Counted from the stretch's first letter, positions 51,164 to 64,000 are shown. The stretch: DNA of 64,000 nt from an uncultured Ignavibacteriaceae bacterium (GCA_963714415.1 CAVQOL010000014.1:10223-74222), one strand, 5' to 3'. Notes: a model not told the origin generated them from the letters alone. Translations and numbers: made by a program.

Positions 51164-52545
51164 ATGACTACAGCACCCAAAAAGTTAGCGATATTAGTGG
51201 GTGGAGGTCCTGCACCAGGAATTAATAGTGTTATTGGTGCTGCAACAATAAGAGCAGAAGTTGAAGGTATTGAAGTTATTGGTATTAAAGACGGATTTAA
51301 ATGGATTATGGAAGGTAATATTTCTGAAGTAAAAGAATTAACAATCCATAGTGTTAGCAGGATACATTTCAGGGGTGGATCTCATATTGGAATTTCAAGG
51401 GCAAATCCTACTAAAGATAAAAAACATCTTGAAAATGCTGTTAATTCACTATTAAGACTTAACGTGGATAAGTTAATTACAATTGGTGGTGATGACACTG
51501 CGTACAGTGCACTGAAAATAAATGAGATGGCTGCCGGCAGAATAAAAGTAGTTCATGTACCTAAAACAATTGATAACGATCTTGATCTTCCTCATGGTAT
51601 TCCTACTTTCGGTTTCCAAACCGCAAGACACATTGGTGTTGAAGTTGTTAAAAATTTGATGGTGGATGCACAAACAACTTCGCGCTGGTATTTTGTTGTT
51701 TCTATGGGAAGAAAAGCCGGGCATCTTGCATTGGGTATTGGTAAAGCAACAGGTGCAACTCTTGACATTAATTCCTGAAGAGTTTCAATCGAAAGAAATT
51801 AAACTTTCGCACATTGTTGATATCCTTGTCGGTGCGATAATCAAAAGATTGAGCTATGGTAAAACAGACGGCGTAGCAATTCTTGCTGAAGGATTAGTTG
51901 AGCATCTTAATCCTAATGATTTTGAATTTTTAGTTAATGTTGAAAGAGATGCACATGATAACATTAGAATAGCAGAAATAAACTTCGGTGAAATACTTAA
52001 ATCTAAAGTACAGGAAAGATTAAAACAGTTTGGAATAAAATCTACAATTGTTGCTAAAAATATTGGTTATGAATTAAGATGTGCCGATCCTATTCCATTT
52101 GATATGGAATACACGCGTGATCTGGGATTCTCAGCTGCTCAATTTATTCTGAGTGGTGGAAGTGGAGCAATGGTTTCAATTCAAAACGGTCACTTTGTAC
52201 CTTTGTACTTTCAAAGAGATTATTGATCCTGTTACACAAAGAACACGTGTCAGGATGGTTGATCCTGCATCTGAGACTTTCTATATTGCCAGAAGATATA
52301 TGCTGCGGTTAAATCATGCGGATTTTGAAGATCCTCACGAACTTGCTAAATATGCTGCAACTGCTGGTATATCTCTTGAAGAATTTAAAGAGCAGTTTTA
52401 TTATTTAATCGAAAAAGACCTTCTTTATAAAAACCTTAAAGAGGGAAAATTAAAGCTTGCGGCAAATGAAAGTAACACGTTATTCAAATCTTATGATGAA
52501 CCTGATTTGAGAGAGTTTGGCAACATTAGTGATGATCGATATTAA
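51164..52545 (+). pseudogene. pfp: Phosphofructokinase of the PPi-dependent type, two apparent frameshifts
   Basis: LAILVGGGPAPGINSVI, TIGGDDT, PKTIDNDL and MGRKAGHLALG. Pieces 51164..51778, 51666..52226 and 52153..52545 rejoin at ~51760 (GATLDINS*/LIPEEFQSKE) and ~52210 (VPLYFQRDY*/FKEIIDPVTQRT). Confidence 0.85.
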
Positions 52546-52565
52546 GTAAATATATTTTTTTCTTA

Positions 52566-52597
52566 CCCCGGACAGAAAAACAGCCGGGGTTTTTTAT
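52566..52597 (+). terminator. Rho-independent terminator after pfp
   Basis: CCCCGG-ACAGAAAAACAG-CCGGGG followed by TTTTTTAT. Confidence 0.8.
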
Positions 52598-52614
52598 GTT
52601 AATAATAATCCTGC

Positions 52615-52728
52615 TTACTTATTTCTTCTTTCAGATTTAATTACTTTGTAAAAACAGTAAGCCGCCAATAAAATTACTGTTCCCCAACCGAAAACAAGGA
52701 AAATAATTCCTTCTGTTGTTAAACCCAT
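52615..52728 (-). CDS. 37-aa single-TM small protein, candidate NSS-transporter small subunit (MetS-like)
   Basis: Not in the ORF track. Own translation: MGLTTEGIIFLVFGWGTVILLAAYCFYKVIKSERRNK*. The ATG shares one base with the transporter stop (TAATG). Confidence 0.6.
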   Translation of the reverse strand: MGLTTEGIIFLVFGWGTVILLAAYCFYKVIKSERRNK

Positions 52729-54287
52729 TATGCAGCCTCCTTATGATTTGTCCAGGCTTTTTTAACTAAGTAGAGTATTCCGAGTGCAATAGCTAACATT
52801 AAAATTCTTGAGCCCCAGATATAAGGAACATTTTCAGCAGGAACATTTTTAAGCAGTAAAGTTGGAATTGCACTTTCAATGAACCACCAAACCATTAGAA
52901 CCATTAAAATTATCGGTGTAATATATTTCATAATGTAATAGAAAAATCTTGGAATGATAAAATCTCCACCTTCATTCATTTCTTTCCAGGCTTTGTCCGC
53001 TCCGAAAACCCACATAAATAAAATTGTTTCTATCAAGGCAAACACAACCAATCCGAAAGTTCCTGCCCAATAATCCATTTCATCAAGAAAACCGAACCTG
53101 AGGAAAAATACAACAAACTGAACAGCAATCAATACTACAGCAGCCAAACTGAATACGGCTTTTTTACGATCCATACCAAATTCATCTTCAAGAAATGCAA
53201 TTATGGGTTGACCCATTGCAACCGACGAAGTTATTCCGGCAAAAAACAGAAGCAGAAACCACATAAATCCGAACAAAAAACCAAGAGGGAAGTGTTCACT
53301 TCCAAAAATTAATGGCATCGATACAAATCCGAGATTAAAAGCTCCGCCCTGAGCAAATTCTTTAGTAACATTTAAACCAAAAAAAGCAACTGCAACAGGA
53401 ATTGCAATTGAAGCACCAAGAACGACTTCTGCAAAAGCATTAGTAGATGCAGTTGTTAACCCTGAAAGTGCTATGTCATCTTTTGGTTTTAAGTAACTCG
53501 CATAAGCATGAATCGTCCCCATTCCAACAGACAGTGTGAAAAATATCTGTCCTGCAGCAGCCAACCAGATATTGGGATTTCCAAGTAGAGAAAAATCAGG
53601 ATTCCAAATAAATCCAAATCCGTTTGCCACAGAATATTCAGGATGAGTTGGATCAGGTGTGCCAAGTGTAATAATTCTTATAGCTAAAATAGTAGCAAAA
53701 AGAAATAACATTGGAAGAGCAAACTTTGCAAGTTTTTCAATACCTCTTGATATTCCGCGATAGAGAATCCAGAAGTTGATAAAAAATGTTATAATCATCA
53801 GTGACCATGCAGTCCATATGTTTGAAAAAGTTTCAGTCTGCTCAATTCCCTGATAGCTTGAAAGAAATGCGGACATAGTTTCACGGGATTCATTTGCATA
53901 TAGCCCGAACATTGAAAAAATGCTGAATCCTAAAGTCCAGGATTCAATGTAAGTGTAGTAAATAAGAATTGTTATTGATATAAATAAACCTAAAGCACCA
54001 AAGTATTTTGCTAATTTATTTTTCCAGATTACATCGAACATACCGGGAGCACTTCCGTGTCTGAATCTTCCGCCGTGTCTTCCGATTCCCCATTCTATCC
54101 ACATAAGGGGAATTCCAAGTATAAGAAAGAATATAAAATACGGAATCATAAAAGCACCACCGCCGTTTTGTGCAGCCTGAACCGGAAAACGTAAAAAATT
54201 TCCTAATCCAACTGCATTACCGGCAACTGCTAAGATCAGTCCGATTTTAGTACCCCATTGTTCTCTTTCAGTTAACTGCGGCATCAA
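52728..54287 (-). CDS. Sodium-dependent transporter, neurotransmitter:sodium symporter (NSS/SNF) family
   Basis: 519 aa with about 12 TM segments. Signature VAGNAVGLGNFLRFP. GGAGG SD upstream. Confidence 0.9.
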   Translation of the reverse strand: MMPQLTEREQWGTKIGLILAVAGNAVGLGNFLRFPVQAAQNGGGAFMIPYFIFFLILGIPLMWIEWGIGRHGGRFRHGSAPGMFDVIWKNKLAKYFGALGLFISITILIYYTYIESWTLGFSIFSMFGLYANESRETMSAFLSSYQGIEQTETFSNIWTAWSLMIITFFINFWILYRGISRGIEKLAKFALPMLFLFATILAIRIITLGTPDPTHPEYSVANGFGFIWNPDFSLLGNPNIWLAAAGQIFFTLSVGMGTIHAYASYLKPKDDIALSGLTTASTNAFAEVVLGASIAIPVAVAFFGLNVTKEFAQGGAFNLGFVSMPLIFGSEHFPLGFLFGFMWFLLLFFAGITSSVAMGQPIIAFLEDEFGMDRKKAVFSLAAVVLIAVQFVVFFLRFGFLDEMDYWAGTFGLVVFALIETILFMWVFGADKAWKEMNEGGDFIIPRFFYYIMKYITPIILMVLMVWWFIESAIPTLLLKNVPAENVPYIWGSRILMLAIALGILYLVKKAWTNHKEAA

Positions 54288-54557
54288 ACCTCCAAAATAG
54301 TGCGTTGAACTTTGTTGATGTAAATATTGATGGGAAATATGAAGACTTTGAAATTTAATATCAAATTATTTTTTGGTTGATTAACTTTTTTTGTACTTAG
54401 CAATTTTTTTTATCAAAGGATTTATATTGGCTTATTCGGGAATTTTACTTCCTTTAGGTCGTTATAGTTTGAATGGGTTTCGTATTACAAACTGATTTAT
54501 TATTAAAAAACTAATTATTAAATTTACATTCATATAATTATAACGAGAGAAAAAAAT

Positions 54558-55193
54558 ATGCCCAAAAATTTTGTATCTAATAAAGATGAAACTATAAGGA
54601 TGTTTAATAATAATTTTTTTGAAGCTTTATCCCGGGTGCATCCGTCAGTTCCTTTGATAATTTATGTTCCTGTAATATTCTATATGCTCTATCTTTCAAT
54701 ATGGCAGCACCAGCTTTCAGCATTGAATATAATAACGCTAATTATATTAGGAATATTTATCTGGACAATTACAGAATATATGCTTCACAGATTTGTATTT
54801 CACTTCCAACCAAAAAGTAAAATTGGAGAAAGGTTGCATTTCATTTTTCATGGTGTTCATCATGATTATCCTAGTGATTCAAGAAGACTTGTAATGCCGC
54901 CTTCGGCAAGTATTCCGCTTGCTTTATTATTCTATTTTTTGTTTGTTCTAATACTAGGCGATGTACTTGTATTTCCGTTCTTTGCTGGCTTTCTTGCCGG
55001 TTATTTATTTTATGATATAACACATTTTGCAATTCATCATTTTAATATGCACAGTAAATTTTGGTTAGCAATTAAGAACCATCATATGAAACATCATTAT
55101 CAGGATCCCAGTAAAGGTTTCGGTGTCAGCACTCCATTTTGGGATGCAGTGATAGGAACTAATTTTGCACCGAATAAGTTTCAAGTCAAGTAA
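54558..55193 (+). CDS. Fatty acid hydroxylase / sterol desaturase superfamily membrane protein
   Basis: His boxes HRFVFH, HGVHHDY, HHFNMH and HHMKHHY, with four TM segments. Confidence 0.8.
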   Translation: MPKNFVSNKDETIRMFNNNFFEALSRVHPSVPLIIYVPVIFYMLYLSIWQHQLSALNIITLIILGIFIWTITEYMLHRFVFHFQPKSKIGERLHFIFHGVHHDYPSDSRRLVMPPSASIPLALLFYFLFVLILGDVLVFPFFAGFLAGYLFYDITHFAIHHFNMHSKFWLAIKNHHMKHHYQDPSKGFGVSTPFWDAVIGTNFAPNKFQVK

Positions 55194-55203
55194 AAAAGTA
55201 AAA

Positions 55204-56853
55204 ATGAATTCTACAAAGGGTCTTAATATTGCTTTCATTTTGTTTCTTATTTTTAGTTGCCAGGCTGCTGATCAGAATAAAATATTTATCAGACTGAATC
55301 AGGTTGGTTTCCTTCCCAATGATATTAAAACAGCAGTAGTAATTTCTAAAAAGCCAATTCAATCGAATGAGTTTTTCATAAGAAATTTTCTTGACAATGA
55401 AAAAGTATATGAAATGTTACTACCTAAAAACTTTTTTTCATATGGCAATTTTAATTATTGCTTAGAAATTGATTTTTCTAAATTTCAGAATGAAGGAAAG
55501 TATTATTTAGAAATTGATAATCAAAAATCCTATGTGTTTCAAATAGGTGAAAATATTTTTAACAGTGTGAGAGACTCTCTCAGCATATTTTTTAAGGTTC
55601 AGCGCTGTGGACCAACTAATCCGTTGCTTCACGAGCCCTGCCATCTTTCGGATGTAGCTTTTGTTCTCGGTCAGTCGGATTCATCAATGATTGATGTTAC
55701 CGGTGGTTGGCACGATGCGGGTGATTATCTAAAATTTTTCTCAACTGCTGCTTATACAACATATCTTTTGCTTTTCAGTTACGAGTTTGATCAAAATAAA
55801 TTCAATTATGACCTTGACAATAATCAAGTGCCAGATATTCTCGAGGAAGCAAGAGTTGGATTGGACTGGTTATTACGATGCAGATTTAAAGAGGATCTCT
55901 TTATAACGCAGGTACAGGATATTTCTGATCACAAGGTCGGTTGGCGTTTGCCTGAAAATGATACCTTACGATATAACAGACCCGGTTATGCAGGAATAGG
56001 TAAAAATCAAATTGGAATTTTTACTGCCGTAATGTCCCTTGCATCAAGAATATGGAGTGAAAGGTTCTATGATTATGAATTTGCAAATAAATTACTTAAG
56101 TCAGCAACAGAAGTTTATTCATTAATAAATACTGTTCCTGATATCGATAACACACAATCAGGTTTTTATCAGGATTTCGATCATTGGGGAAAACTTTCAC
56201 TTGGAGCCATAGAATTATTTCTATCAACAAAAGAAAAAAAATATTATAACGATGCACTTAATTTTGCCGATAGTGCAAAGTCTGATTTCTGGTGGAGTTG
56301 GGGAAATATGAATTCATTAGCTTATTATAAGATTGCAAAATATGATTCTAACTATATTTCACGTATCAAGAGAAACCTTGATTATAATAAAAAAAAATCC
56401 AGTCAATCATTATTTAGAGAAGCTGCTGATTATACCTGGGGAAGTACAAATTCGTTTCTTGGTGCCGCTCTTCAAGCAATTCTTTATAAAGAGGTGACTG
56501 GAAAAAATGATTATGACTCGTTGATGATTTTTCAAAGGGATTATATTCTTGGTAGAAATCCTTGGGGAATATCTTTCATATATAATGTTGGGACTACATT
56601 TTCAAAAAATTTGCACTCTCAGATAGGATATTTTAACAATAGCTATTTGCCCGGTGCTTTAAGTTCTGGTCCATCTCCCGCTAAAATTTTGGAAAAATAT
56701 CCAATAGAGCGAACTGACAGTTCGACAAATTTATTTAACACTGATTCTGTAAAATACTTTGATGATTTTAACGATTTTATAACAAACGAACCAACAATTG
56801 GAAGCAACGCAACAGCCTTATTTGTATTTGGTTTTTTCTCAAAAAGTAACTGA
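55204..56853 (+). CDS. Glycoside hydrolase family 9 (endoglucanase-like) lipoprotein
   Basis: Lipobox LIFSCQ, an Ig-like N-domain, GGWHDAGDYLKF, DWLLRC and C-terminal NEPTIGSNATA. The ATG at 55204 is preferred over the ORF-track start at 55165. Confidence 0.82.
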   Translation: MNSTKGLNIAFILFLIFSCQAADQNKIFIRLNQVGFLPNDIKTAVVISKKPIQSNEFFIRNFLDNEKVYEMLLPKNFFSYGNFNYCLEIDFSKFQNEGKYYLEIDNQKSYVFQIGENIFNSVRDSLSIFFKVQRCGPTNPLLHEPCHLSDVAFVLGQSDSSMIDVTGGWHDAGDYLKFFSTAAYTTYLLLFSYEFDQNKFNYDLDNNQVPDILEEARVGLDWLLRCRFKEDLFITQVQDISDHKVGWRLPENDTLRYNRPGYAGIGKNQIGIFTAVMSLASRIWSERFYDYEFANKLLKSATEVYSLINTVPDIDNTQSGFYQDFDHWGKLSLGAIELFLSTKEKKYYNDALNFADSAKSDFWWSWGNMNSLAYYKIAKYDSNYISRIKRNLDYNKKKSSQSLFREAADYTWGSTNSFLGAALQAILYKEVTGKNDYDSLMIFQRDYILGRNPWGISFIYNVGTTFSKNLHSQIGYFNNSYLPGALSSGPSPAKILEKYPIERTDSSTNLFNTDSVKYFDDFNDFITNEPTIGSNATALFVFGFFSKSN

Positions 56854-57039
56854 AAATAATAAAATTGTAGGATATTTACTGACGAGCTCAACTTTTGCCA
56901 TGTAGCAATTTAATACACGATTTATTCGTTTGTCTCCATTTAGTAATCAATTAGCTCATCTTCTTCAAATTTTGGCATTTTGGGTAACATTTCTACGGTA
57001 TGAAAATTGGGAAAAGAATAGTAAACTATTTCGAAAATC

Positions 57040-58278
57040 ATGAAAAAAAGTATCCAGTTGGTGCCATCCGGCATCTCAATAGCGGACAATGCCTGGGGTG
57101 GTTTTTACAGAGGAGGGACTTATCTTTTAATTGGACCTAGAAAATCAGGAAAAACACTATTAAGCCTACAATTTGCTTTAGAGTGTGCCAAACAAAAAGA
57201 AGTCTGCCTTTATTTCACCAACATGCGTCCCAAAGACTTGATGATTCAAGCTGCGTCAATTGATTTTGATTTGCAGCACTATATGAATCAGAATTTAATT
57301 ATTGTAGTTAAAGTTGCTCCTCCGGCTGATTTAGCCGATTATAAAAATCGTGACGAACTTCTTATTGAATATCTTAAAGATATTGTAACCGTTGTTGAGC
57401 AGTATCAACCATGCAAATTGGTTTTTGATGAACTAACTCCTTTTATCGGTTTTGAAAATCTTTCTTTGCTTGAAGAAACATTTCTTGAAACTACTGAAAA
57501 AATTGAAGACTCCGGAATTACCAGTCTGTTTGTTCTAGGTGAACCGGCTGTTCCAAGTTCAAGATTAATTCTTGATTCGGTTAATTTAGCTGCAACAGGG
57601 ATTGTTCATCTTCAAAAGCAAACCGATACTTACGATAGGACCAAAGGTGGAATAATTAGTATTTCACCAAACATTGGTCACACCGAAGGAAAATTTAAAG
57701 CCAACTATTATATAGAGGCTTATAAAGGAATAACAACCGATTTTCAACCTGTAAAACGAAAAACCTTAACCGGAGAAAGATTTACATCGCTTGAAGATGA
57801 TAAATTCAAATCACTTTCAGAAATTGATATTCCTCCCGTTAATTATTCTTTATCTAATTTCTATAGTATTGATGACTTTATATTAATTCTAAATAATCAA
57901 ATAGCACTTTTTAAAAGTACAGGTCAAACTTTTCGCCTAATTGCTATTAAATATGCTGATGATTTAGAAAGGACAGGCTTGCTGTCTGTAAATCAACTTC
58001 AAAATGCATTAAGGCTTGCTATTGACAAGAAGGATAAGATTTGTATTTGTGAAAATAAAATATTGATACTTATAACAAAAGATGACCAGAGAAATGTCAC
58101 TAATTTTATTTCGCGTTTTAAATATAATCTTCCGGTTTTGGATGAAGATCAATTATTTGAAATAATGCGGAGAGTTTTTGTTTACACATCAAAAGTAAAT
58201 GAAGAAACACGTAATGCTGATGATCTCTTACAAAAATTAATCTCTGGAAAAAATTTTAATAGAAATTCGTACGATTAA
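57040..58278 (+). CDS. RecA/KaiC-like ATPase domain fused to a GGDEF-like (non-GGDEF) C-terminal domain; putative EPS regulator
   Basis: VPSGISIADNAWGGFYRGGTYLLIGPRKSGKTLLSLQFALE (Walker A GPRKSGKT), KLVFDELT (Walker B-like) and GIVHLQ. The C-terminal ~170 aa have a GGDEF-domain-like beta-alpha layout (FRLIAIKYADD...ALRLAIDKKDKICICENKILILITKDD) with no GGDEF motif. Confidence 0.6.
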   Translation: MKKSIQLVPSGISIADNAWGGFYRGGTYLLIGPRKSGKTLLSLQFALECAKQKEVCLYFTNMRPKDLMIQAASIDFDLQHYMNQNLIIVVKVAPPADLADYKNRDELLIEYLKDIVTVVEQYQPCKLVFDELTPFIGFENLSLLEETFLETTEKIEDSGITSLFVLGEPAVPSSRLILDSVNLAATGIVHLQKQTDTYDRTKGGIISISPNIGHTEGKFKANYYIEAYKGITTDFQPVKRKTLTGERFTSLEDDKFKSLSEIDIPPVNYSLSNFYSIDDFILILNNQIALFKSTGQTFRLIAIKYADDLERTGLLSVNQLQNALRLAIDKKDKICICENKILILITKDDQRNVTNFISRFKYNLPVLDEDQLFEIMRRVFVYTSKVNEETRNADDLLQKLISGKNFNRNSYD

Positions 58279-58292
58279 CATCAGGTTATAGG

Positions 58293-61142
58293 ATGAAGAC
58301 AATTAATACTCTGCTAGTTGGGCTTCTCCTATTTACTTCTTTAGTCTTTCCTCAAAATGGCACTGAAGAACTTAAACTCGAAGCCAACCAACTCATAAAC
58401 ATGGGAAGATATGGTGAAGCTATTGATTTGCTGAATCGTTTCATAGCTGAAAATCCCCAGAACATAGAAGGATTTTTACTACGCGGAACTTGCTATGAAA
58501 AAAGAGGTGAGTTTGAGTTTGCAGTTTACGATTACAAAACAGCAAAAAAAATCTCTCCGGCAAATATTGAAGTTAATAACAAACTGAATTCAGCAGTTGA
58601 ATCGTGGAATATACTTCTCTATAATAAAATTGAAGGACATCAGAGAGAAATTGCCATTCACCCGGATCGTGCAATTAATTATCTGGAAATCGGAATATGT
58701 TATAAAAATCTTGGTGAGTGGAAAGAAGCTGAGATTTGGTATGATGAGTATCTGAAAAGAGAAGAAGCATCTGCTGACGAAGTTTTAAGATATGCTGAAA
58801 TACTTGCTAAGAATAATCAACTAAAAAAGGGCGAGGAGATATTAAAAAAATATTCCGTAAAAAATTCTGATGATCACAGAATCTGGTCTCGCTATGGTTA
58901 TTTTCTTTACTGGTTGGGTAAAAGACGATTAGCCGTAAATGCTTTTGAACAATCACTGACTATTAGACCATTCTTTAAAGAAGCTCTAGATGGTTTAGAT
59001 TTGGCTAAAGGCAGAGGTTATGTTTATACAACAAATGATACAACTAAAAGATATTCTTACGGCATAGCATCCGGAGTTCCGGAGTATATTATCGACAAGC
59101 TTTACAGAAAAATTAAAAATGATCCCAAAGATGATAATACAAGATTTAAGTTAATTGACGAACTTGTTAAAGTTCAACGATTTGAAGAAGCTTATGAACA
59201 ACTAAGATTTTTATCAGACAAGTATTCTGATTCAGAAGATTTTAAAAATCTGTATTCCATAGTTTTAGAAAACCGGGATGCATATTATAAAAATAAGATT
59301 GACGAATATCACGCTAAGTTGCTTTCTGATCCAAACAATGTTGAAGTTTTATTACAATTGGCTAAATATTATTCATATCAGAATGAATACATTTCTTCTA
59401 AGGAAATGTATGAACGTTATTTGAAATTGAAGCCTGAAGATCTGGATGCGAGATTTAATTATGCACAATTGCTATCGTGGAATGATGAACTTTCTCTTGC
59501 TAAAGATGAGGCTGATGTGCTTTTAACAAAAAATCCAGAAAAAACTGAATACCAATTATTAAAAGCTAACATTGGATTCTGGATGGATGAAAATCTTGAC
59601 CAGTCAAAACTGCTATACGAAAAAGTAATTGGAAATCAGCCTGATAATAAAGAAGCCTTGTTTGGATTGGCATATCTTAGTTTGCGTATTAATAAAATTA
59701 AAGATGCAGAAAAATACTATGCAACATTATTAAAAGATGAGAGTATTTCTTCAAAGGAATTAAAAGAATTGTCATTAAGCATTGAGCTTAATAAACAAAG
59801 AATAAAAGATGAAGAGTTGTATGCTTATTTAGAGAGTGCAAGAAAATATGCCTATGAGAATATTTGCGATAGTGCTATAACAAATTTTGAAAAATATTTT
59901 GAAAAGGGCGGAACAAATAAAAATATTTATTTCGAATTAGCTAATGGATATCAATGTATTGGGAATTATGATAAAGCGATAAGTATTTATGACGATTTAA
60001 TTGCCTCGGGCTTTAATGATTACGAAACAAAAAAACAAAGAGCAAAAATAATTTTCTGGAGCGGTGATTCGTTAAATGCTTTACGGGAGTTCAGGAAATT
60101 AGTATCTGAAAATCCTGAAGATGCAGAATCGAAGTTATATCTGGGCGACAGTTATGTTAAGCTAAAACAATATCAGAGTGCCAGAGAAATTTATCAGGAA
60201 ATGCTTAAGGAATCCCCGGAATCACATATTATCAAAACTCGTATGAGGTGGTTGGGTAGTGAAGGGATAGATACTTTTTCATTCGATACTTTTCCGACTT
60301 ACATTTTAGTAATACCTCAGGGAAATTATTTTACTGACAACACAAAGTTTAAGTACAATCTAGTTGGTCTGGGTTTAGAATTAGGAGCAACAAATTATTT
60401 ATCATTAGGAATTTCAGGTTACCGTGGAACTTTGTCATCTGAATTCAATAAATTAAATTTTAACAATCTAAAAGGTTCATTACATATAAGATTTAATGAA
60501 TTTACAAGAGCTTACGTTTCGTTTGGACAAACATACTTTGTGAATAATCGTAGTGAAAATATTATTGAAGCTGCAATGTTCTTTCACAAGAAAGACATCT
60601 ATAGTGCATCAATTTTCTATAATAATATGGATGCTGCATTTATTTTGTATTCACCATTTTTAGTGATAAACAGATTTACTGCAGAACACTTAGGTTTTAA
60701 CGGCAATTATAATTTCAGGAGCGGATTGCTTATTTCAGGTAAATATGCTTTTATAAATGTTTCTGACGATAATGAAGGTAATCAATTTGAATTCAGATTG
60801 GGCAAAAAATTTCAAAAGGATATTAAAGCCGGGTATGAGTATTATTACTATACGTTTTCGGATTCATCTTTTTTATACTGGAGTCCTGAAAATTTTGAAT
60901 CACATTCTATTTGGGCAGACTTCAACCTAGTTAATGATGATGAAACAACTATTAATCTTGGAGGCAAACTCGGACTGATACCTGAAAACGATTATTTACT
61001 TAGAGAATTTTATGCAGAAGTAAAGTATATGCTGGTTCCGAATTTTAATTTACAAGCTAGATTTGTTTCCGGAAGCAGCTCAAGATCGGGAATAGGTTAT
61101 AATTCAACTTCTATTCAATTGAATGCATTTTGGACATTATAA
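58293..61142 (+). CDS. TPR-repeat plus C-terminal beta-barrel outer-membrane protein (PgaA/PelB/BcsC-like EPS porin)
   Basis: Signal peptide, ~640 aa of TPR-like repeats, then ~300 aa of alternating beta-strand sequence ending ...IQLNAFWTL. Confidence 0.7.
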   Translation: MKTINTLLVGLLLFTSLVFPQNGTEELKLEANQLINMGRYGEAIDLLNRFIAENPQNIEGFLLRGTCYEKRGEFEFAVYDYKTAKKISPANIEVNNKLNSAVESWNILLYNKIEGHQREIAIHPDRAINYLEIGICYKNLGEWKEAEIWYDEYLKREEASADEVLRYAEILAKNNQLKKGEEILKKYSVKNSDDHRIWSRYGYFLYWLGKRRLAVNAFEQSLTIRPFFKEALDGLDLAKGRGYVYTTNDTTKRYSYGIASGVPEYIIDKLYRKIKNDPKDDNTRFKLIDELVKVQRFEEAYEQLRFLSDKYSDSEDFKNLYSIVLENRDAYYKNKIDEYHAKLLSDPNNVEVLLQLAKYYSYQNEYISSKEMYERYLKLKPEDLDARFNYAQLLSWNDELSLAKDEADVLLTKNPEKTEYQLLKANIGFWMDENLDQSKLLYEKVIGNQPDNKEALFGLAYLSLRINKIKDAEKYYATLLKDESISSKELKELSLSIELNKQRIKDEELYAYLESARKYAYENICDSAITNFEKYFEKGGTNKNIYFELANGYQCIGNYDKAISIYDDLIASGFNDYETKKQRAKIIFWSGDSLNALREFRKLVSENPEDAESKLYLGDSYVKLKQYQSAREIYQEMLKESPESHIIKTRMRWLGSEGIDTFSFDTFPTYILVIPQGNYFTDNTKFKYNLVGLGLELGATNYLSLGISGYRGTLSSEFNKLNFNNLKGSLHIRFNEFTRAYVSFGQTYFVNNRSENIIEAAMFFHKKDIYSASIFYNNMDAAFILYSPFLVINRFTAEHLGFNGNYNFRSGLLISGKYAFINVSDDNEGNQFEFRLGKKFQKDIKAGYEYYYYTFSDSSFLYWSPENFESHSIWADFNLVNDDETTINLGGKLGLIPENDYLLREFYAEVKYMLVPNFNLQARFVSGSSSRSGIGYNSTSIQLNAFWTL

Positions 61143-61160
61143 TTATTTTTGTTTATTGAT

Positions 61161-62555
61161 ATGAATGTTAATCCTAACATAAAAAAAAGTTTATTTACTA
61201 TTGAAAGCAAGGATGAAACCCGTGCAACTGAAAATCCAGAACAAAAATATCTTCGCAGGATTTTAGTCAGCGGTATATCTTCTTTGATTTTAATTCTGAT
61301 AATTGTTTACACATTACCTCACACAATTCTATCGGTAAATTCATTAATTGAATATGCAGTAATAGTTGCATTAGTAATTTTCTTATTCATTTTATTGATT
61401 CGTTATTTTACAATTTTAATATTCGCTTATTTCTATTTGAATGAATATACATTCAAAAAGAATGGAGATTTTTCGCCTTTCGTTTCAGTGATCATTCCCG
61501 TTTTTAACGAAGAAAAAGTTATACGACAGACAATTAAATCGTTGCTTAATTTGGATTATTCAAACTATGAAATAATTATTGTTAACGACGGTTCAACTGA
61601 TAAAACAAAGTCAGTTGCTGAATCTCTTGTTGGAAATCATCCAGGAGTTCATAGTAAAATAAAAGTATCACTTATAAATCAATCCAACAGTGGTAAAGCC
61701 AGAGCTTTAAATGCAGGTATCCAATATTCTAAAGCCGATTTTGTTCTTTGTATGGATGGTGATTCACAGCTTTCTCCTGATTCCCTGAAGTCTGCTGCCA
61801 GGCATTTTTCTAATCCTAAAATTGGAGCCGTGGCAGGCAACGTAAAAGTCTTGAACAGGCGAAAGTTTTTTACTGATCTTCAAGCCCTTGAATATATCGA
61901 AGGTTTGAATATGGCTCGGAGTGCTCAAAGTTTCATAAGATTAGTTAATATTATTCCCGGACCTATTGGCGTATTCAGAAAAAAAGCTATTGAAGATGCC
62001 GGGTATTACTCAAGTGATACTTTTGCAGAAGATGCCGACCTTACTGTAAAAATTATTGCCTCAGGTTGGAAAATATATTATGAACCAAATTCAATTTCTT
62101 ATACTGAAGCTCCAAGCACATTACAGCAGCTGTTAAAACAAAGATATCGCTGGACAAGGGGTATTCTTCAATCGCTGAGAAAACACAAAAGATTACTGAT
62201 CAATCCAACTATAAATTTTGGTCACACGTTTATTTTATGGTCAATGTTTTACGAAGCTTTAGTTTGGCCTGCTATGAATATAGCGGCAAATGTTTTCTTT
62301 ATAACTGCTGCATTAATATTTGGATTTACCCAATTGATTTTTTTCTGGTGGGCTGGTTTAGCTTTACTAGATTTAGTAACTGCTCTTTATTGTGTTGCTG
62401 TTGAGAAAGAAGAGTTCAGATTAATTTGGTATGCAATTATTTACAGAATGTTTTTCATTCTTATAATTGATATTTGTAAAGCTATGTCAACCATAGAAGA
62501 ATTTCTGGGAATAAGAATGACCTGGGGTAAATTAGAAAGAGTGGGCTCAGTTTAA
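61161..62555 (+). CDS. Processive family 2 glycosyltransferase (PgaC/IcaA/NodC-like polysaccharide synthase)
   Basis: VSVIIPVFNEE, IIIVNDGSTD, LCMDGDSQL, FAEDADLT and the QxxRW motif QRYRWTRG. TM helices flank the catalytic domain. Confidence 0.85.
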   Translation: MNVNPNIKKSLFTIESKDETRATENPEQKYLRRILVSGISSLILILIIVYTLPHTILSVNSLIEYAVIVALVIFLFILLIRYFTILIFAYFYLNEYTFKKNGDFSPFVSVIIPVFNEEKVIRQTIKSLLNLDYSNYEIIIVNDGSTDKTKSVAESLVGNHPGVHSKIKVSLINQSNSGKARALNAGIQYSKADFVLCMDGDSQLSPDSLKSAARHFSNPKIGAVAGNVKVLNRRKFFTDLQALEYIEGLNMARSAQSFIRLVNIIPGPIGVFRKKAIEDAGYYSSDTFAEDADLTVKIIASGWKIYYEPNSISYTEAPSTLQQLLKQRYRWTRGILQSLRKHKRLLINPTINFGHTFILWSMFYEALVWPAMNIAANVFFITAALIFGFTQLIFFWWAGLALLDLVTALYCVAVEKEEFRLIWYAIIYRMFFILIIDICKAMSTIEEFLGIRMTWGKLERVGSV

Positions 62556-62601
62556 TATTAAATTAGATATTTATTAAAAGGTAATTCATAGAGGTTAAAT
62601 A

Positions 62602-63045
62602 ATGGAATTAATTCCAATCTTATCAACAATAATTCTTGTTGCAACAATAAGCACTTTTATTCTTTCAATTGGTGCATATATCCTTTATAAAATAAGGGAA
62701 AAGAAGACAGTATCCAGTATGAGAACTGTGCCGCGAACTTTGCAAGCAGAACTCGTGGTTCCTGCTGATGTAATTCCTAGTCGGTTAACTGCACAGGAAA
62801 CTAAACCATCTCAATATCAGAGTCCTTATACAGTACAGAAACCTGCATCTTCTTTTACAGGTATCAAGCAGCCAGTTATTTTGCAGGAACCTAGAAAAAT
62901 TTCAGTGGAAGAAAATAAAAAAGTTTATGAACCTCGTCAGGCTTATACGAGAAAAACAACTGAAACTAAGTTCTTAAAGTATACTTCCGAGGGTTATGTG
63001 CCAACAGAGGAAGATAAAGCAGCAGGAGCACTTAAATGGCGTTAA
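62602..63045 (+). CDS. Single-pass membrane protein with a disordered cytoplasmic tail (positional analogue of PgaD)
   Basis: N-terminal TM (IPILSTIILVATISTFILSIGAYILY), then a P/Q/T/K-rich tail with no motif. Confidence 0.45.
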   Translation: MELIPILSTIILVATISTFILSIGAYILYKIREKKTVSSMRTVPRTLQAELVVPADVIPSRLTAQETKPSQYQSPYTVQKPASSFTGIKQPVILQEPRKISVEENKKVYEPRQAYTRKTTETKFLKYTSEGYVPTEEDKAAGALKWR

Positions 63046-64000
63046 TTAACGCTCCTAACAAAGGAAGAGTAAATCTATTTTTGATTTTATTTTCCGGATT
63101 AGTTATTCTCAGTGCTGCTGTTCTGGTTTATTACTTCGTATTACGCGGAGTTTATGGACGATTTGATATAACCTCATTATTACCTACAAAAGAGACAGTA
63201 AATAAGACATTAATTGGTGAAACCGATCAGGTAGCAATCCTTTACTCAAACTACACTGAAAATATGTTACCCGAAGGAAGTACATGGTTAGCAGATAATA
63301 TTTCAACGTGGAAGAAATTCCTTGGCAATATGAAACTTGGTTATGATATTCTATCTGATCAGGACGTAGAGCAGGGGAAACATCTTAGATACAGATTACT
63401 TGTTCTTCCGGGTTCAAAATCTTTAAGTGACAAGGAAATCTTTCAGATAAAAAAATATCTTGAAAGCGGTGGAAGCGTTTTTGCAACCAGCGGTATTGCC
63501 AGTTATTCCGAAGACGGAAAATGGAGAGGATGGCAATTCTTTAATCAGGTTTTCGGAATGCAGTTTACTCACGAAATTAAAAATGATAATTCTTTAAAAA
63601 TTCATACTCTCAGAGGTGGAATTCCTCTTACAGCTACAATTCCAACCGGTTATCCGTTAAAGGTTGCAACCTGGGATATCCCTATGGCAGCAGAAGTTCT
63701 TGAGCCAAGAACAAATCAGGTTAGTTTCTGGTATAATTTCAGGCTTGAAGATGGTTTGGTCAGAGAAGGAGTTAAACGCTCAACAGGAATTGCTAATGGA
63801 TGTTATGGTGAAGGAAGATTTGTTTGGATGGGTTTTGAAATTAATTCGGTTGTTGGCTTGCAAGAAGATTACATCTTGTTCGACAGATTTTTTAACAACT
63901 GTGTCCATTGGTTAACATACAGTCCAATTGCTTATGTAAAAGATTGGCCGGAAGGATATGATGCTGCCGCAGTAATTATGCCGGTTCTTTCCAATGATGT
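63036..64000 (+). CDS. Membrane-anchored protein with a glutamine-amidotransferase-like alpha/beta domain, continues past the window end; possible EPS-modifying enzyme
   Basis: Not in the ORF track because it has no stop. Own translation: MALINAPNKGRVNLFLILFSGLVILSAAVLVYYF...YRLLVLPGSKSLSDKEIFQIKKYLESGGSVFATSG...GEGRFVWMGFEI...YVKDWPEGYDAAAVIMPVLSNDV. The ATG overlaps the upstream stop by 10 nt. Confidence 0.6.
   Translation, partial: MALINAPNKGRVNLFLILFSGLVILSAAVLVYYFVLRGVYGRFDITSLLPTKETVNKTLIGETDQVAILYSNYTENMLPEGSTWLADNISTWKKFLGNMKLGYDILSDQDVEQGKHLRYRLLVLPGSKSLSDKEIFQIKKYLESGGSVFATSGIASYSEDGKWRGWQFFNQVFGMQFTHEIKNDNSLKIHTLRGGIPLTATIPTGYPLKVATWDIPMAAEVLEPRTNQVSFWYNFRLEDGLVREGVKRSTGIANGCYGEGRFVWMGFEINSVVGLQEDYILFDRFFNNCVHWLTYSPIAYVKDWPEGYDAAAVIMPVLSND

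Follow-up and report, generated by a model that had tools for sequence, protein, structure and literature searches.

We analysed a 64,000-nucleotide (nt) stretch of DNA from an uncultured Ignavibacteriaceae bacterium (GCA_963714415.1, CAVQOL010000014.1:10223-74222; referred to below as the window) and describe the gene cluster at its 3' end, which appears to encode the synthesis and export of a polysaccharide. Five genes, named P1 to P5 here, follow one another on the plus strand. P1 (57040-58278) encodes 412 aa, P2 (58293-61142) 949 aa, P3 (61149-62555, with a TTG start) 468 aa and P4 (62602-63045) 147 aa, each as a complete open reading frame (ORF), and P5 begins with an ATG at 63036 and stays open for 321 codons up to the window end (63036-64000). 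In the ORF list computed for 52000-64000, the first four genes are spaced by 14, 6 and 46 nt and P4 overlaps P5 by 10 nt, which confirmed the gene content and the small gaps of the five co-directional genes proposed in an earlier reading of the DNA (the sequence-only reading). Homologues of all five ORFs with 40-95% identity recur in kept order at more than 85 loci, and the ORFs are therefore not a product of chance.

The G+C content across the region was 30-38% with no compositional break. Promoter and terminator scans returned nothing above shuffled expectation, promoters of the Fibrobacteres-Chlorobi-Bacteroidetes (FCB) type being outside the coverage of the tool, and no terminator-like site was found by the scan at the P1/P2 junction. 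A defence-system reading was rejected after PADLOC gave no defence-system match. Fold and family assignments, motifs, predicted topology and synteny were computed for the proteins and their relatives, and taken together they make the region probably the central part of a cluster, conserved in Ignavibacteria, for the synthase-dependent secretion of a polysaccharide, with a proposed control by P1.

The synthase, the putative export protein and the membrane partners

P3 was identified as the synthase. It matched PF00535 (124 bits), PF13632 (105 bits) and PF13641, and its best NCBIfam family was TIGR03937 PgaC_IcaA (208.3 bits over residues 77-445), followed by the models of NodC (110 bits) and cellulose synthase CelA (78 bits). 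Among E. coli targets, hhalign scored PgaC at 266 (99.9% probability), YaiP at 150 and BcsA at 95. The D, DxD, ED and QRYRW motifs that the sequence-only reading had listed were all located (NDGS at residue 146, DGD at 203-205, ED at 294-295 and QRYRW at 331-335) and are invariant in 60 homologues. Two N-terminal and three C-terminal hydrophobic segments match the layout of E. coli PgaC, and we infer that these transmembrane segments form the translocation channel. The best family, the hhalign probability and the 2+3 layout all place P3 with the processive type of family 2 glycosyltransferase (GT2), as had been proposed. The score falls far short of the 422.3 bits set as the cut-off of the PgaC equivalog, so the product need not be poly-N-acetylglucosamine (PNAG). 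Judged by sequence, P3 is a processive PgaC-like inner-membrane GT2, but the evidence does not allow it to be called a PNAG synthase.

P2 starts with a hydrophobic signal sequence followed by tetratricopeptide repeats (TPR) at approximately residues 31-648 (~620 aa), where many TPR families matched and bore out the first half of the proposed TPR-plus-barrel architecture. This region aligned to the BcsC TPR region with an hhalign probability of 95%, and sub-threshold matches were obtained for the PgaA model TIGR03939 (58 bits against a cut-off of 367), BcsC (31 bits) and NfrA. The remaining ~285 residues (residues ~665-949, nt 60285-61139, plus strand) had no family match, and sequence features point to a barrel. 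Periodicity computed on a 73-sequence alignment gave a beta moment larger than the alpha moment in 76% of the alignment windows, versus 40% in the TPR part, with ~13-16 amphipathic strands callable and a composition shifted to G, S, T, N and F. The region has the length of the PgaA barrel (~290 aa) and ends in S-x-S-x-x-L-S-A-[FY]-W-[ST]-[LF] in ~70 homologues, an aromatic signature that we take to resemble the outer-membrane beta-signal.

A few P2-family members gave weak matches to OMP_b-brl, YaiO, PgaA or BcsC models. A profile of the barrel region had no hit in the PDB, and no signal to the PgaA (residues 511-807), BcsC or YaiO barrels was found by hhalign, which, here and in the comparisons below, aligned family profiles with single E. 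coli sequences (BcsE, the PgaA and BcsC barrels, PgaB, PgaD, BcsZ and YaiO), gave no match to any of these and is a weak test. The second half of the proposed architecture was thus supported by periodicity, terminal signature and PgaA-like size, but not by the homology searches. The general features of outer-membrane barrel porins (a signal peptide, amphipathic strands and a C-terminal aromatic signature) are all present, and we predict that the C-terminal ~285 aa form an outer-membrane beta-barrel.

Inside the window, P5 spans 321 aa from its N-terminus; full-length orthologues at two related loci, L003 and L004, have 633 aa and share 92-100% identity with it over the common part. A single N-terminal membrane segment and a frame still open at 64000 agree with the membrane-anchored protein running off the window that had been described. 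The protein consists of the N-terminal anchor, a GIFT/GATase1-like domain, a domain with the fold of carbohydrate esterase family 4 (CE4) and a short immunoglobulin (Ig)-like C-terminal domain, the second of which resembles the fold of the glycoside hydrolase family 42 (GH42) trimerisation domain, IFT52-GIFT and GldG, which is class-I glutamine-amidotransferase-like. P5 homologues of 520-560 aa carry PF01522, scores with this family were 25-33 bits (cut-off 23), and a family profile searched against the PDB hit the CE4 deacetylase 2J13 best (E 4e-5), with a dozen further CE4 structures. The homology to CE4 is weak but genuine.

The residues that define the CE4 active site are missing from this fold. 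The His-His of the CE4 HSxxH motif aligns to G-Y-L-x-S-x-N in the P5 family, the position of the Asp-Asp of TFDD is I-x-P-x-L in a manual alignment, and neither position is conserved. H503 is the only invariant His of the family, which has further invariant motifs in DSLTDRSVP, TKTARDDYEVIRD, YTYQEDIDR and FEGG. Because the TFDD and HSxxH residues are missing and no His other than H503 is invariant, P5 is, on its family alignment, related to CE4 and not a canonical metal-dependent deacetylase.

P4 has one N-terminal hydrophobic segment followed by K/R residues, in agreement with the single-pass membrane protein proposed earlier, and its tail is probably cytoplasmic. The tail is variable and of low complexity and ends in a conserved F-L-[KR]-Y-T-x-x-G-Y ... 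K-W-R. Both the membrane segment and this C-terminal motif are kept in 59 homologues, and P4 had no Pfam or NCBIfam family match.

The P3 family, the TPR region and predicted barrel of P2 and the co-conservation of the genes described below support the synthase-dependent logic of the pga, pel and bcs systems that the sequence-only reading had recognised, and synthase-dependent polysaccharide export is very likely what the locus encodes. The locus has much in common with pgaABCD/icaADBC in particular: a GT2 of PgaC/IcaA type that shares the motifs and the 2+3 layout, a gene for a small membrane protein right after the synthase, a periplasmic CE4-fold protein and a TPR protein with a C-terminal region of PgaA-barrel size (~290 aa). 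The cluster might thus be a rearranged pga/ica-type PNAG operon, in which P3, as an orthologue of PgaC, would make poly-beta-1,6-N-acetylglucosamine and P5 would be a PgaB/IcaB-type deacetylase, P2 the PgaA porin, P4 a substitute for PgaD, and P1 incidental. That PgaC_IcaA is by far the best family of P3 agrees with such an operon, as do the hhalign score of P3, which is highest for PgaC, the layout of P3, the CE4 fold of P5 and the weak match of the PgaA model to P2. However, the gene order differs and P3 stays far under the equivalog cut-off. P4 has one segment and no similarity to PgaD, which has two (hhalign 0.2%). PgaB carries the CE4 Asp/His/His site and a GH153 domain, whereas P5 has neither, carries the GIFT/GATase1-like domain instead and gave no match to PgaB (hhalign 0.2%). 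The barrel region of P2 is not detectably homologous to the PgaA barrel, and the locus adds a KaiC-type protein with a degenerate GGDEF domain as well as a hydrolase of glycoside hydrolase family 9 (GH9), whose members are known for acting on beta-1,4 linkages. We therefore regard a PNAG operon as a possibility of rather low probability.

P1, a KaiC-type protein with a GGDEF-fold tail

The N-terminal part of P1 is a KaiC/RecA-like nucleotide-binding domain (residues 8-202; nt 57061-57645, plus strand) that matched the KaiC family PF06745 with an E-value of 8e-22, in accordance with the RecA/KaiC-like ATPase read from the sequence earlier; phmmer also matched it to solved KaiC structures (E 2e-15). 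The motifs Walker A (GPRKSGKT, residue 32) and Walker B (LVFDE, residue 127) are intact, and GPRKSG[KR]T and FDE are invariant in 30 aligned P1 homologues. The catalytic Glu-Glu pair of KaiC is N-M in P1 and [SN]-M in the family consensus of the HMMER alignment. Unlike the KaiC clock protein, P1 has a single domain of this type without a CI-CII duplication, and it scored 47 bits with NF006799 against a cut-off of 408. Given the intact Walker motifs and the replaced Glu-Glu pair, P1 is best described from its motifs as a KaiC-like protein with one such domain, which probably binds ATP and may or may not hydrolyse it; the Walker B Glu might stand in for the Glu pair. No membrane segment was predicted, and the protein is cytoplasmic. 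The archaeal ArlH/FlaH is likewise a one-domain KaiC-type regulatory partner of a membrane machine and not a clock, but it has no GGDEF fusion, belongs to the archaellum and comes from another domain of life.

Residues 210-412 had no Pfam or NCBIfam family match. An AlphaFold2 model of full-length P1 was mediocre (predicted local distance difference test, pLDDT, of 67), and the Foldseek search with it returned KaiC and FlaH only and was uninformative about the tail, as KaiC-type hits mask the C-terminal domain. Modelled alone, residues 262-412 reached a pLDDT of 84 and a predicted template modelling (pTM) score of 0.77, and each of the 50 best PDB matches returned by Foldseek was a GGDEF domain, with E-values from 6e-6 to 1e-3, template modelling (TM) scores of 0.55-0.66 and PelD at rank 37. 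The GGDEF-like tail of the sequence-only reading was thereby borne out at the level of fold, and model and search together place a degenerate GGDEF domain at residues ~273-401 (nt 57856-58242, plus strand), joined to the KaiC domain by a low-confidence linker of ~40 residues.

The beta2-beta3 hairpin of the tail has C-E-N-K (family consensus x-x-N-K) where GG[DE]EF is expected, by which replacement the domain is to be read as catalytically dead. At the position of the I-site lies a nearly invariant loop, R325-L-x-x-D329-K-K331-D332-K333, and not RxxD; this conserved charged patch suggests a ligand or partner site.

The P1 family comprised 1216 proteins at E<=1e-3. With the tail as the query, phmmer found 44 cluster representatives among 1.84 billion proteins, all of P1-family type, and the KaiC domain was present in eight of the nine full-length hits tested (~400-450 aa). 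Two proteins are candidates for other architectures: P0203 combines the P1-type degenerate GGDEF domain with an N-terminal flotillin-like FloA domain, and P0225 carries it in a 1389-aa protein without a Pfam match.

Regulators of comparable design are present in known synthase-dependent systems. BcsE consists of a RecA/KaiC-like N-terminal domain and a degenerate REC-GGDEF tandem that senses cyclic di-GMP (c-di-GMP), and it is recruited to the membrane via the small protein BcsF (PMC7439463). P1 and P4, like BcsE and BcsF of E. coli-type (type II) cellulose operons, pair such a regulator with a small single-pass partner in a synthase-dependent operon, and by analogy BcsE/BcsF is the closest counterpart of P1/P4. 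The two pairs differ in that P1 has no intervening degenerate REC domain, in that its Walker A and B are intact where the Walker motifs of BcsE are degenerate, and in that it has D-K-K-D at the I-site position where BcsE has an RxxD c-di-GMP site. The Bcs system differs further in its synthase, which is BcsA and not PgaC-like; homologues of BcsB, BcsQ, BcsR and BcsG are not present at the locus. PelD of the Pel system is also a degenerate GGDEF receptor in a system that exports through a TPR-plus-barrel protein, PelB, but it is membrane-anchored, couples the degenerate GGDEF domain to a GAF domain and has an RxxD site.

Conservation, flanking genes and variants of the cluster

The distribution of the cluster was scanned with one genome per GTDB species. 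P1 relatives occurred in at least 198 species genomes, and the 79 loci retrieved were almost all from Ignavibacteria, Ignavibacteriales or Bacteroidota metagenome-assembled genomes. A metagenome scan seeded with divergent P1 relatives added 80 loci, mostly of the main family. Synteny was counted by tblastn with the window proteins at loci long enough to test. P2-P3-P4-P5 followed P1 in order at 85 of 97 loci, a count that, like the others here, is not fully independent, since some metagenome loci are near-duplicates. This order persists down to a P1 identity of 39-50%. Downstream, a PAS-HisKA(-REC) kinase was found at 38 of 59 loci and a protein with fn3 domains at 30 of 59. Neither a non-processive GT2, nor a non-barrel C-terminus of P2, nor a lack of co-conservation was thus encountered, the three outcomes that the sequence-only reading had named as contrary to it.

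The two closest relatives, with DNA identities to the window of 91% (L003) and 90% (L004), show how the cluster continues beyond the window, an extension that the sequence-only reading had suggested in order to see the operon end. Past P5, L003 encodes a secreted protein of 258 aa that is paralogous to the N-terminal domain of P5, and then a 352-aa fn3 protein (L003:11291-13169); a PAS histidine kinase also lies downstream in this closest relative. In L004 these two genes are reduced to ORF remnants (L004:17897-18830), and a PAS-HisKA kinase follows after ~900 nt. Since L003 has two more genes after P5 at 91% DNA identity, the window operon probably extends two genes beyond 64000 as well, and as the same genes are intact in L003 and remnants in L004, accessory genes decay quickly between close species. 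In two more distant relatives (L001:11711-13384 and L002:11895-13659), a second full-length P5 paralogue stands directly after P5; it has GH42M-like and CE4/DUF2334-like domains and is split into two ORFs in L002.

Upstream of P1 lies a gene for a GH9 enzyme with an N-terminal Ig-like CelD_N domain (55165-56853, plus strand; PF00759, PF02927). It scored 262 bits with PF00759, above the gathering score and over model positions 4-443 of 444, and 61 bits with PF02927. A lipobox-like LFLIFSC signal indicates that it is probably a lipoprotein, and its nearest solved structures are all beta-1,4-endoglucanases. The gene ends 186 nt before P1, and GH9 was found within 4.5 kb upstream of P1 at 85 of 120 loci, the synteny from which we infer a functional tie to the operon. 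Counted with this gene and the downstream ones of the relatives, the cluster has more than the five members of the sequence-only reading.

This hydrolase raises the alternative that the polymer is beta-1,4-linked, cellulose-like or chitin/chitosan-like, and that the system is functionally nearer to E. coli-type Bcs than to Pga, with GH9, P1, P4 and P2 in the roles of BcsZ, BcsE, BcsF and BcsC, respectively. Besides the synteny and the beta-1,4-glucanase relatives of GH9, the TPR region of P2 aligns best to BcsC, the P1/P4 pair parallels BcsE/BcsF, and P3 also matches NodC and chitin-synthase models. On the other hand, PgaC is clearly a closer match to P3 than BcsA or NodC, and neither a BcsB homologue nor a PilZ domain was found in Pfam and NCBIfam scans. 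GH9 is missing upstream at ~30% of loci and, at 186 nt from P1, could instead serve the degradation of plant polymers, which is common in Ignavibacteria. We consider a Bcs-like system for such a polymer conceivable, with a chance well short of even.

The start of the GH9 gene is overlapped by a gene for a membrane protein of the fatty-acid hydroxylase superfamily (54558-55193, plus strand; PF04116, 72 bits), which was found upstream at 67 of 112 loci, among them L164 and L086, where the polysaccharide genes have been lost. A gene of the sodium:neurotransmitter-symporter family at 52728-54287 also flanks the cluster. That the hydroxylase is part of the system is doubtful. The hydroxylase and symporter genes flank the locus in several distant relatives, including L164, and because they are still present there after the loss of the polysaccharide genes, their synteny probably reflects inherited gene order and not function. 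Further upstream in the window, a phosphofructokinase gene (51164-52545) is apparently split into three ORFs that overlap (51164-51778, 51666-52226 and 52153-52545). The first covers PF00365 from position 1 to 186 (of 277), and the split points to two frameshifts, from either a pseudogene or assembly indel errors.

Several loci depart from the common arrangement. Many carry ~1.4-2 kb extra between P2 and P3 (L095, L091, L066, L079, L081 and others). In the one such locus examined, the insert (L095:14449-15705) encodes a 418-aa secreted protein with the SGNH/GDSL-like motif HYGDSLIQGD and a weak PF13472 match, features that would fit an acyl-modification or esterase step on the polymer; the window has no SGNH/GDSL-like gene at this place. 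P2 is absent between P1 and P3 at L124 and L140. At L086 (9941-14836), P1, P4 and the kinase are present and P2, P3 and P5 are absent from the locus; at L101, P1 stands beside a PAS kinase with the export genes missing. A diverged P1 (22-30% identity, with the DKKDK loop lost) stands alone beside a PAS kinase at L164 (10001-11221), which suggests that P1 is freed from constraint once the polysaccharide genes are gone. What L086 and L164 retain without the polysaccharide genes hints at a regulatory unit made up of P1, P4 and the kinase.

The same loci could be read as showing that P1, P4 and the kinase are an independent KaiC-type signalling module, adjacent by inherited order and without control of the polysaccharide genes. 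P1 beside a kinase without polysaccharide genes at L164, L086 and L101 is what such a module would leave, the synteny is phylogenetically non-independent with carriers that are nearly all Ignavibacteria, and no role is obvious for the fatty-acid hydroxylase gene nearby, which is just as conserved. However, P1 and P2 are only 14 nt apart with no terminator-like site found between them, gene order is kept at low P1 identities, the copy of P1 that lacks polysaccharide neighbours has diverged strongly, and degenerate GGDEF regulators recur in synthase-dependent systems (PelD, BcsE). An independent module is thus improbable.

Proposed function and significance

The locus follows synthase-dependent logic but, by its gene families, it does not count as a pga, bcs or pel locus, because P3 scores below the threshold and no PgaD, catalytic PgaB, BcsB, PilZ, PelF or PelG was found. 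For Pel, the Pfam and NCBIfam scans covered the five proteins and the downstream genes of relatives, and PelF (a family 4 glycosyltransferase, GT4), PelG, PelE, PelC and the GAF domain of PelD were not found there. The E. coli pairs NfrA/NfrB and YaiO/YaiP also combine a GT2 with an outer-membrane protein, NfrA having TPR and a barrel and YaiO a barrel, but the NfrA and YaiO models matched weakly and far below their cut-offs, hhalign to YaiO gave 0.1%, and P3 aligned better with PgaC than with YaiP. An MshEN c-di-GMP domain is part of NfrB but absent from this locus. The earlier proposal that no known system has such accessory proteins was largely right at the level of sequence, where hhalign found nothing between P1 and BcsE, P4 and PgaD, P5 and PgaB, or the barrel region and PgaA, BcsC or YaiO. 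It is refined by the CE4 fold of P5 and by the BcsE-like architecture of P1.

We propose the following scheme, in which the biosynthetic steps are drawn from protein family and topology and the control steps from architecture and synteny. The product made and exported by the cluster is most likely a biofilm-type sugar polymer. From a UDP-sugar, P3 would build a beta-linked homopolymer of hexosamine or hexose, threading the chain across the inner membrane. P5, anchored in the inner membrane and facing the periplasm, would act on the nascent chain by binding or modification, and since the canonical CE4 metal and base residues are lost, plain de-N-acetylation cannot be taken for granted. P2 would take the chain on its periplasmic TPR scaffold and pass it through the C-terminal outer-membrane barrel, and the GH9 lipoprotein may trim or release chains. 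P1 would act as a cytoplasmic nucleotide-dependent switch, with the KaiC-type domain binding ATP and maybe oligomerising or autophosphorylating, and with the dead GGDEF domain serving as a ligand- or partner-binding module. It may be docked at the synthase via the cytoplasmic tail of P4 and wired also to the neighbouring PAS hybrid histidine kinase. The chances that P1 does regulate the synthase are about even in our judgement.

A number of the findings weigh against this scheme. On the side of biosynthesis, they are the score of P3 below the PgaC cut-off, the negative PDB profile and hhalign searches with the predicted barrel of P2, and the lack of conserved CE4 Asp-Asp and His-His residues in P5. 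On the side of control, RxxD is absent from the I-site of the P1 tail, hhalign of P1 to E. coli BcsE gave 0.1%, and neither P1 model had BcsE among its 50 best structural hits. No GG[DE]EF proteins were found in the window and ~160 neighbourhoods (ORFs of at least 150 aa, ~0.76 million residues), so c-di-GMP signalling has no local support, and c-di-GMP is an unlikely ligand of P1. GH9-P1-P2 is kept with the synthase elsewhere at L073 and L075-L077. Finally, nearly all carriers belong to one class, and part of the synteny may therefore be inherited order, as for the fatty-acid hydroxylase.

The pointers to the polymer differ: the synthase points to a PNAG-type N-acetylglucosamine polymer, and GH9, whose relatives are beta-1,4-glucanases, to a beta-1,4 linkage. 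A tentative reading, which we would not put above either of the two operon types discussed above, is that P1 and P4 are an unrecognised activator module of a PgaC-like synthase, gated by ATP and a small ligand, with a KaiC-SasA-like input from the kinase and a polymer other than PNAG. P1/P4 would then be analogous and possibly anciently related to BcsE/BcsF, with a working P-loop in P1. The polymer might then be a chain of hexosamine or glucan type with beta-1,4 linkages, processed by GH9 and a re-purposed CE4-fold protein.

A systematic survey of synthase-dependent operons makes no mention of Ignavibacteria, Chlorobi or Bacteroidetes (PMC7112194). Our literature searches for a KaiC-GGDEF fusion or an Ignavibacteria polysaccharide locus found neither, returning only the BcsE paper and unrelated work, and within the literature searched both the locus type and the fusion of KaiC to a degenerate GGDEF domain appear previously undescribed.

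Synthase-dependent secretion, as in cellulose, PNAG, Pel and alginate, is the best-understood route to the polysaccharides of the biofilm matrix, and existing knowledge of it comes almost wholly from Proteobacteria and Firmicutes; the present locus extends the scheme to Ignavibacteria. Unlike the textbook systems, it joins a dead GGDEF domain to a KaiC-type nucleotide site that appears functional, encodes a CE4-fold protein that has other invariant acidic motifs and no deacetylase site, and has GH9 as the hydrolase. The main interest of the locus is the regulator P1. If P1 acts as proposed, KaiC-type ATP switches would be linked to polysaccharide export, and BcsE, whose N-terminal domain is poorly understood, would gain a non-degenerate relative for study. 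If P1 and P4 are indeed an activator module, regulators that combine a RecA/KaiC-like domain with a dead GGDEF domain would be a general and old switch and not an enterobacterial oddity.

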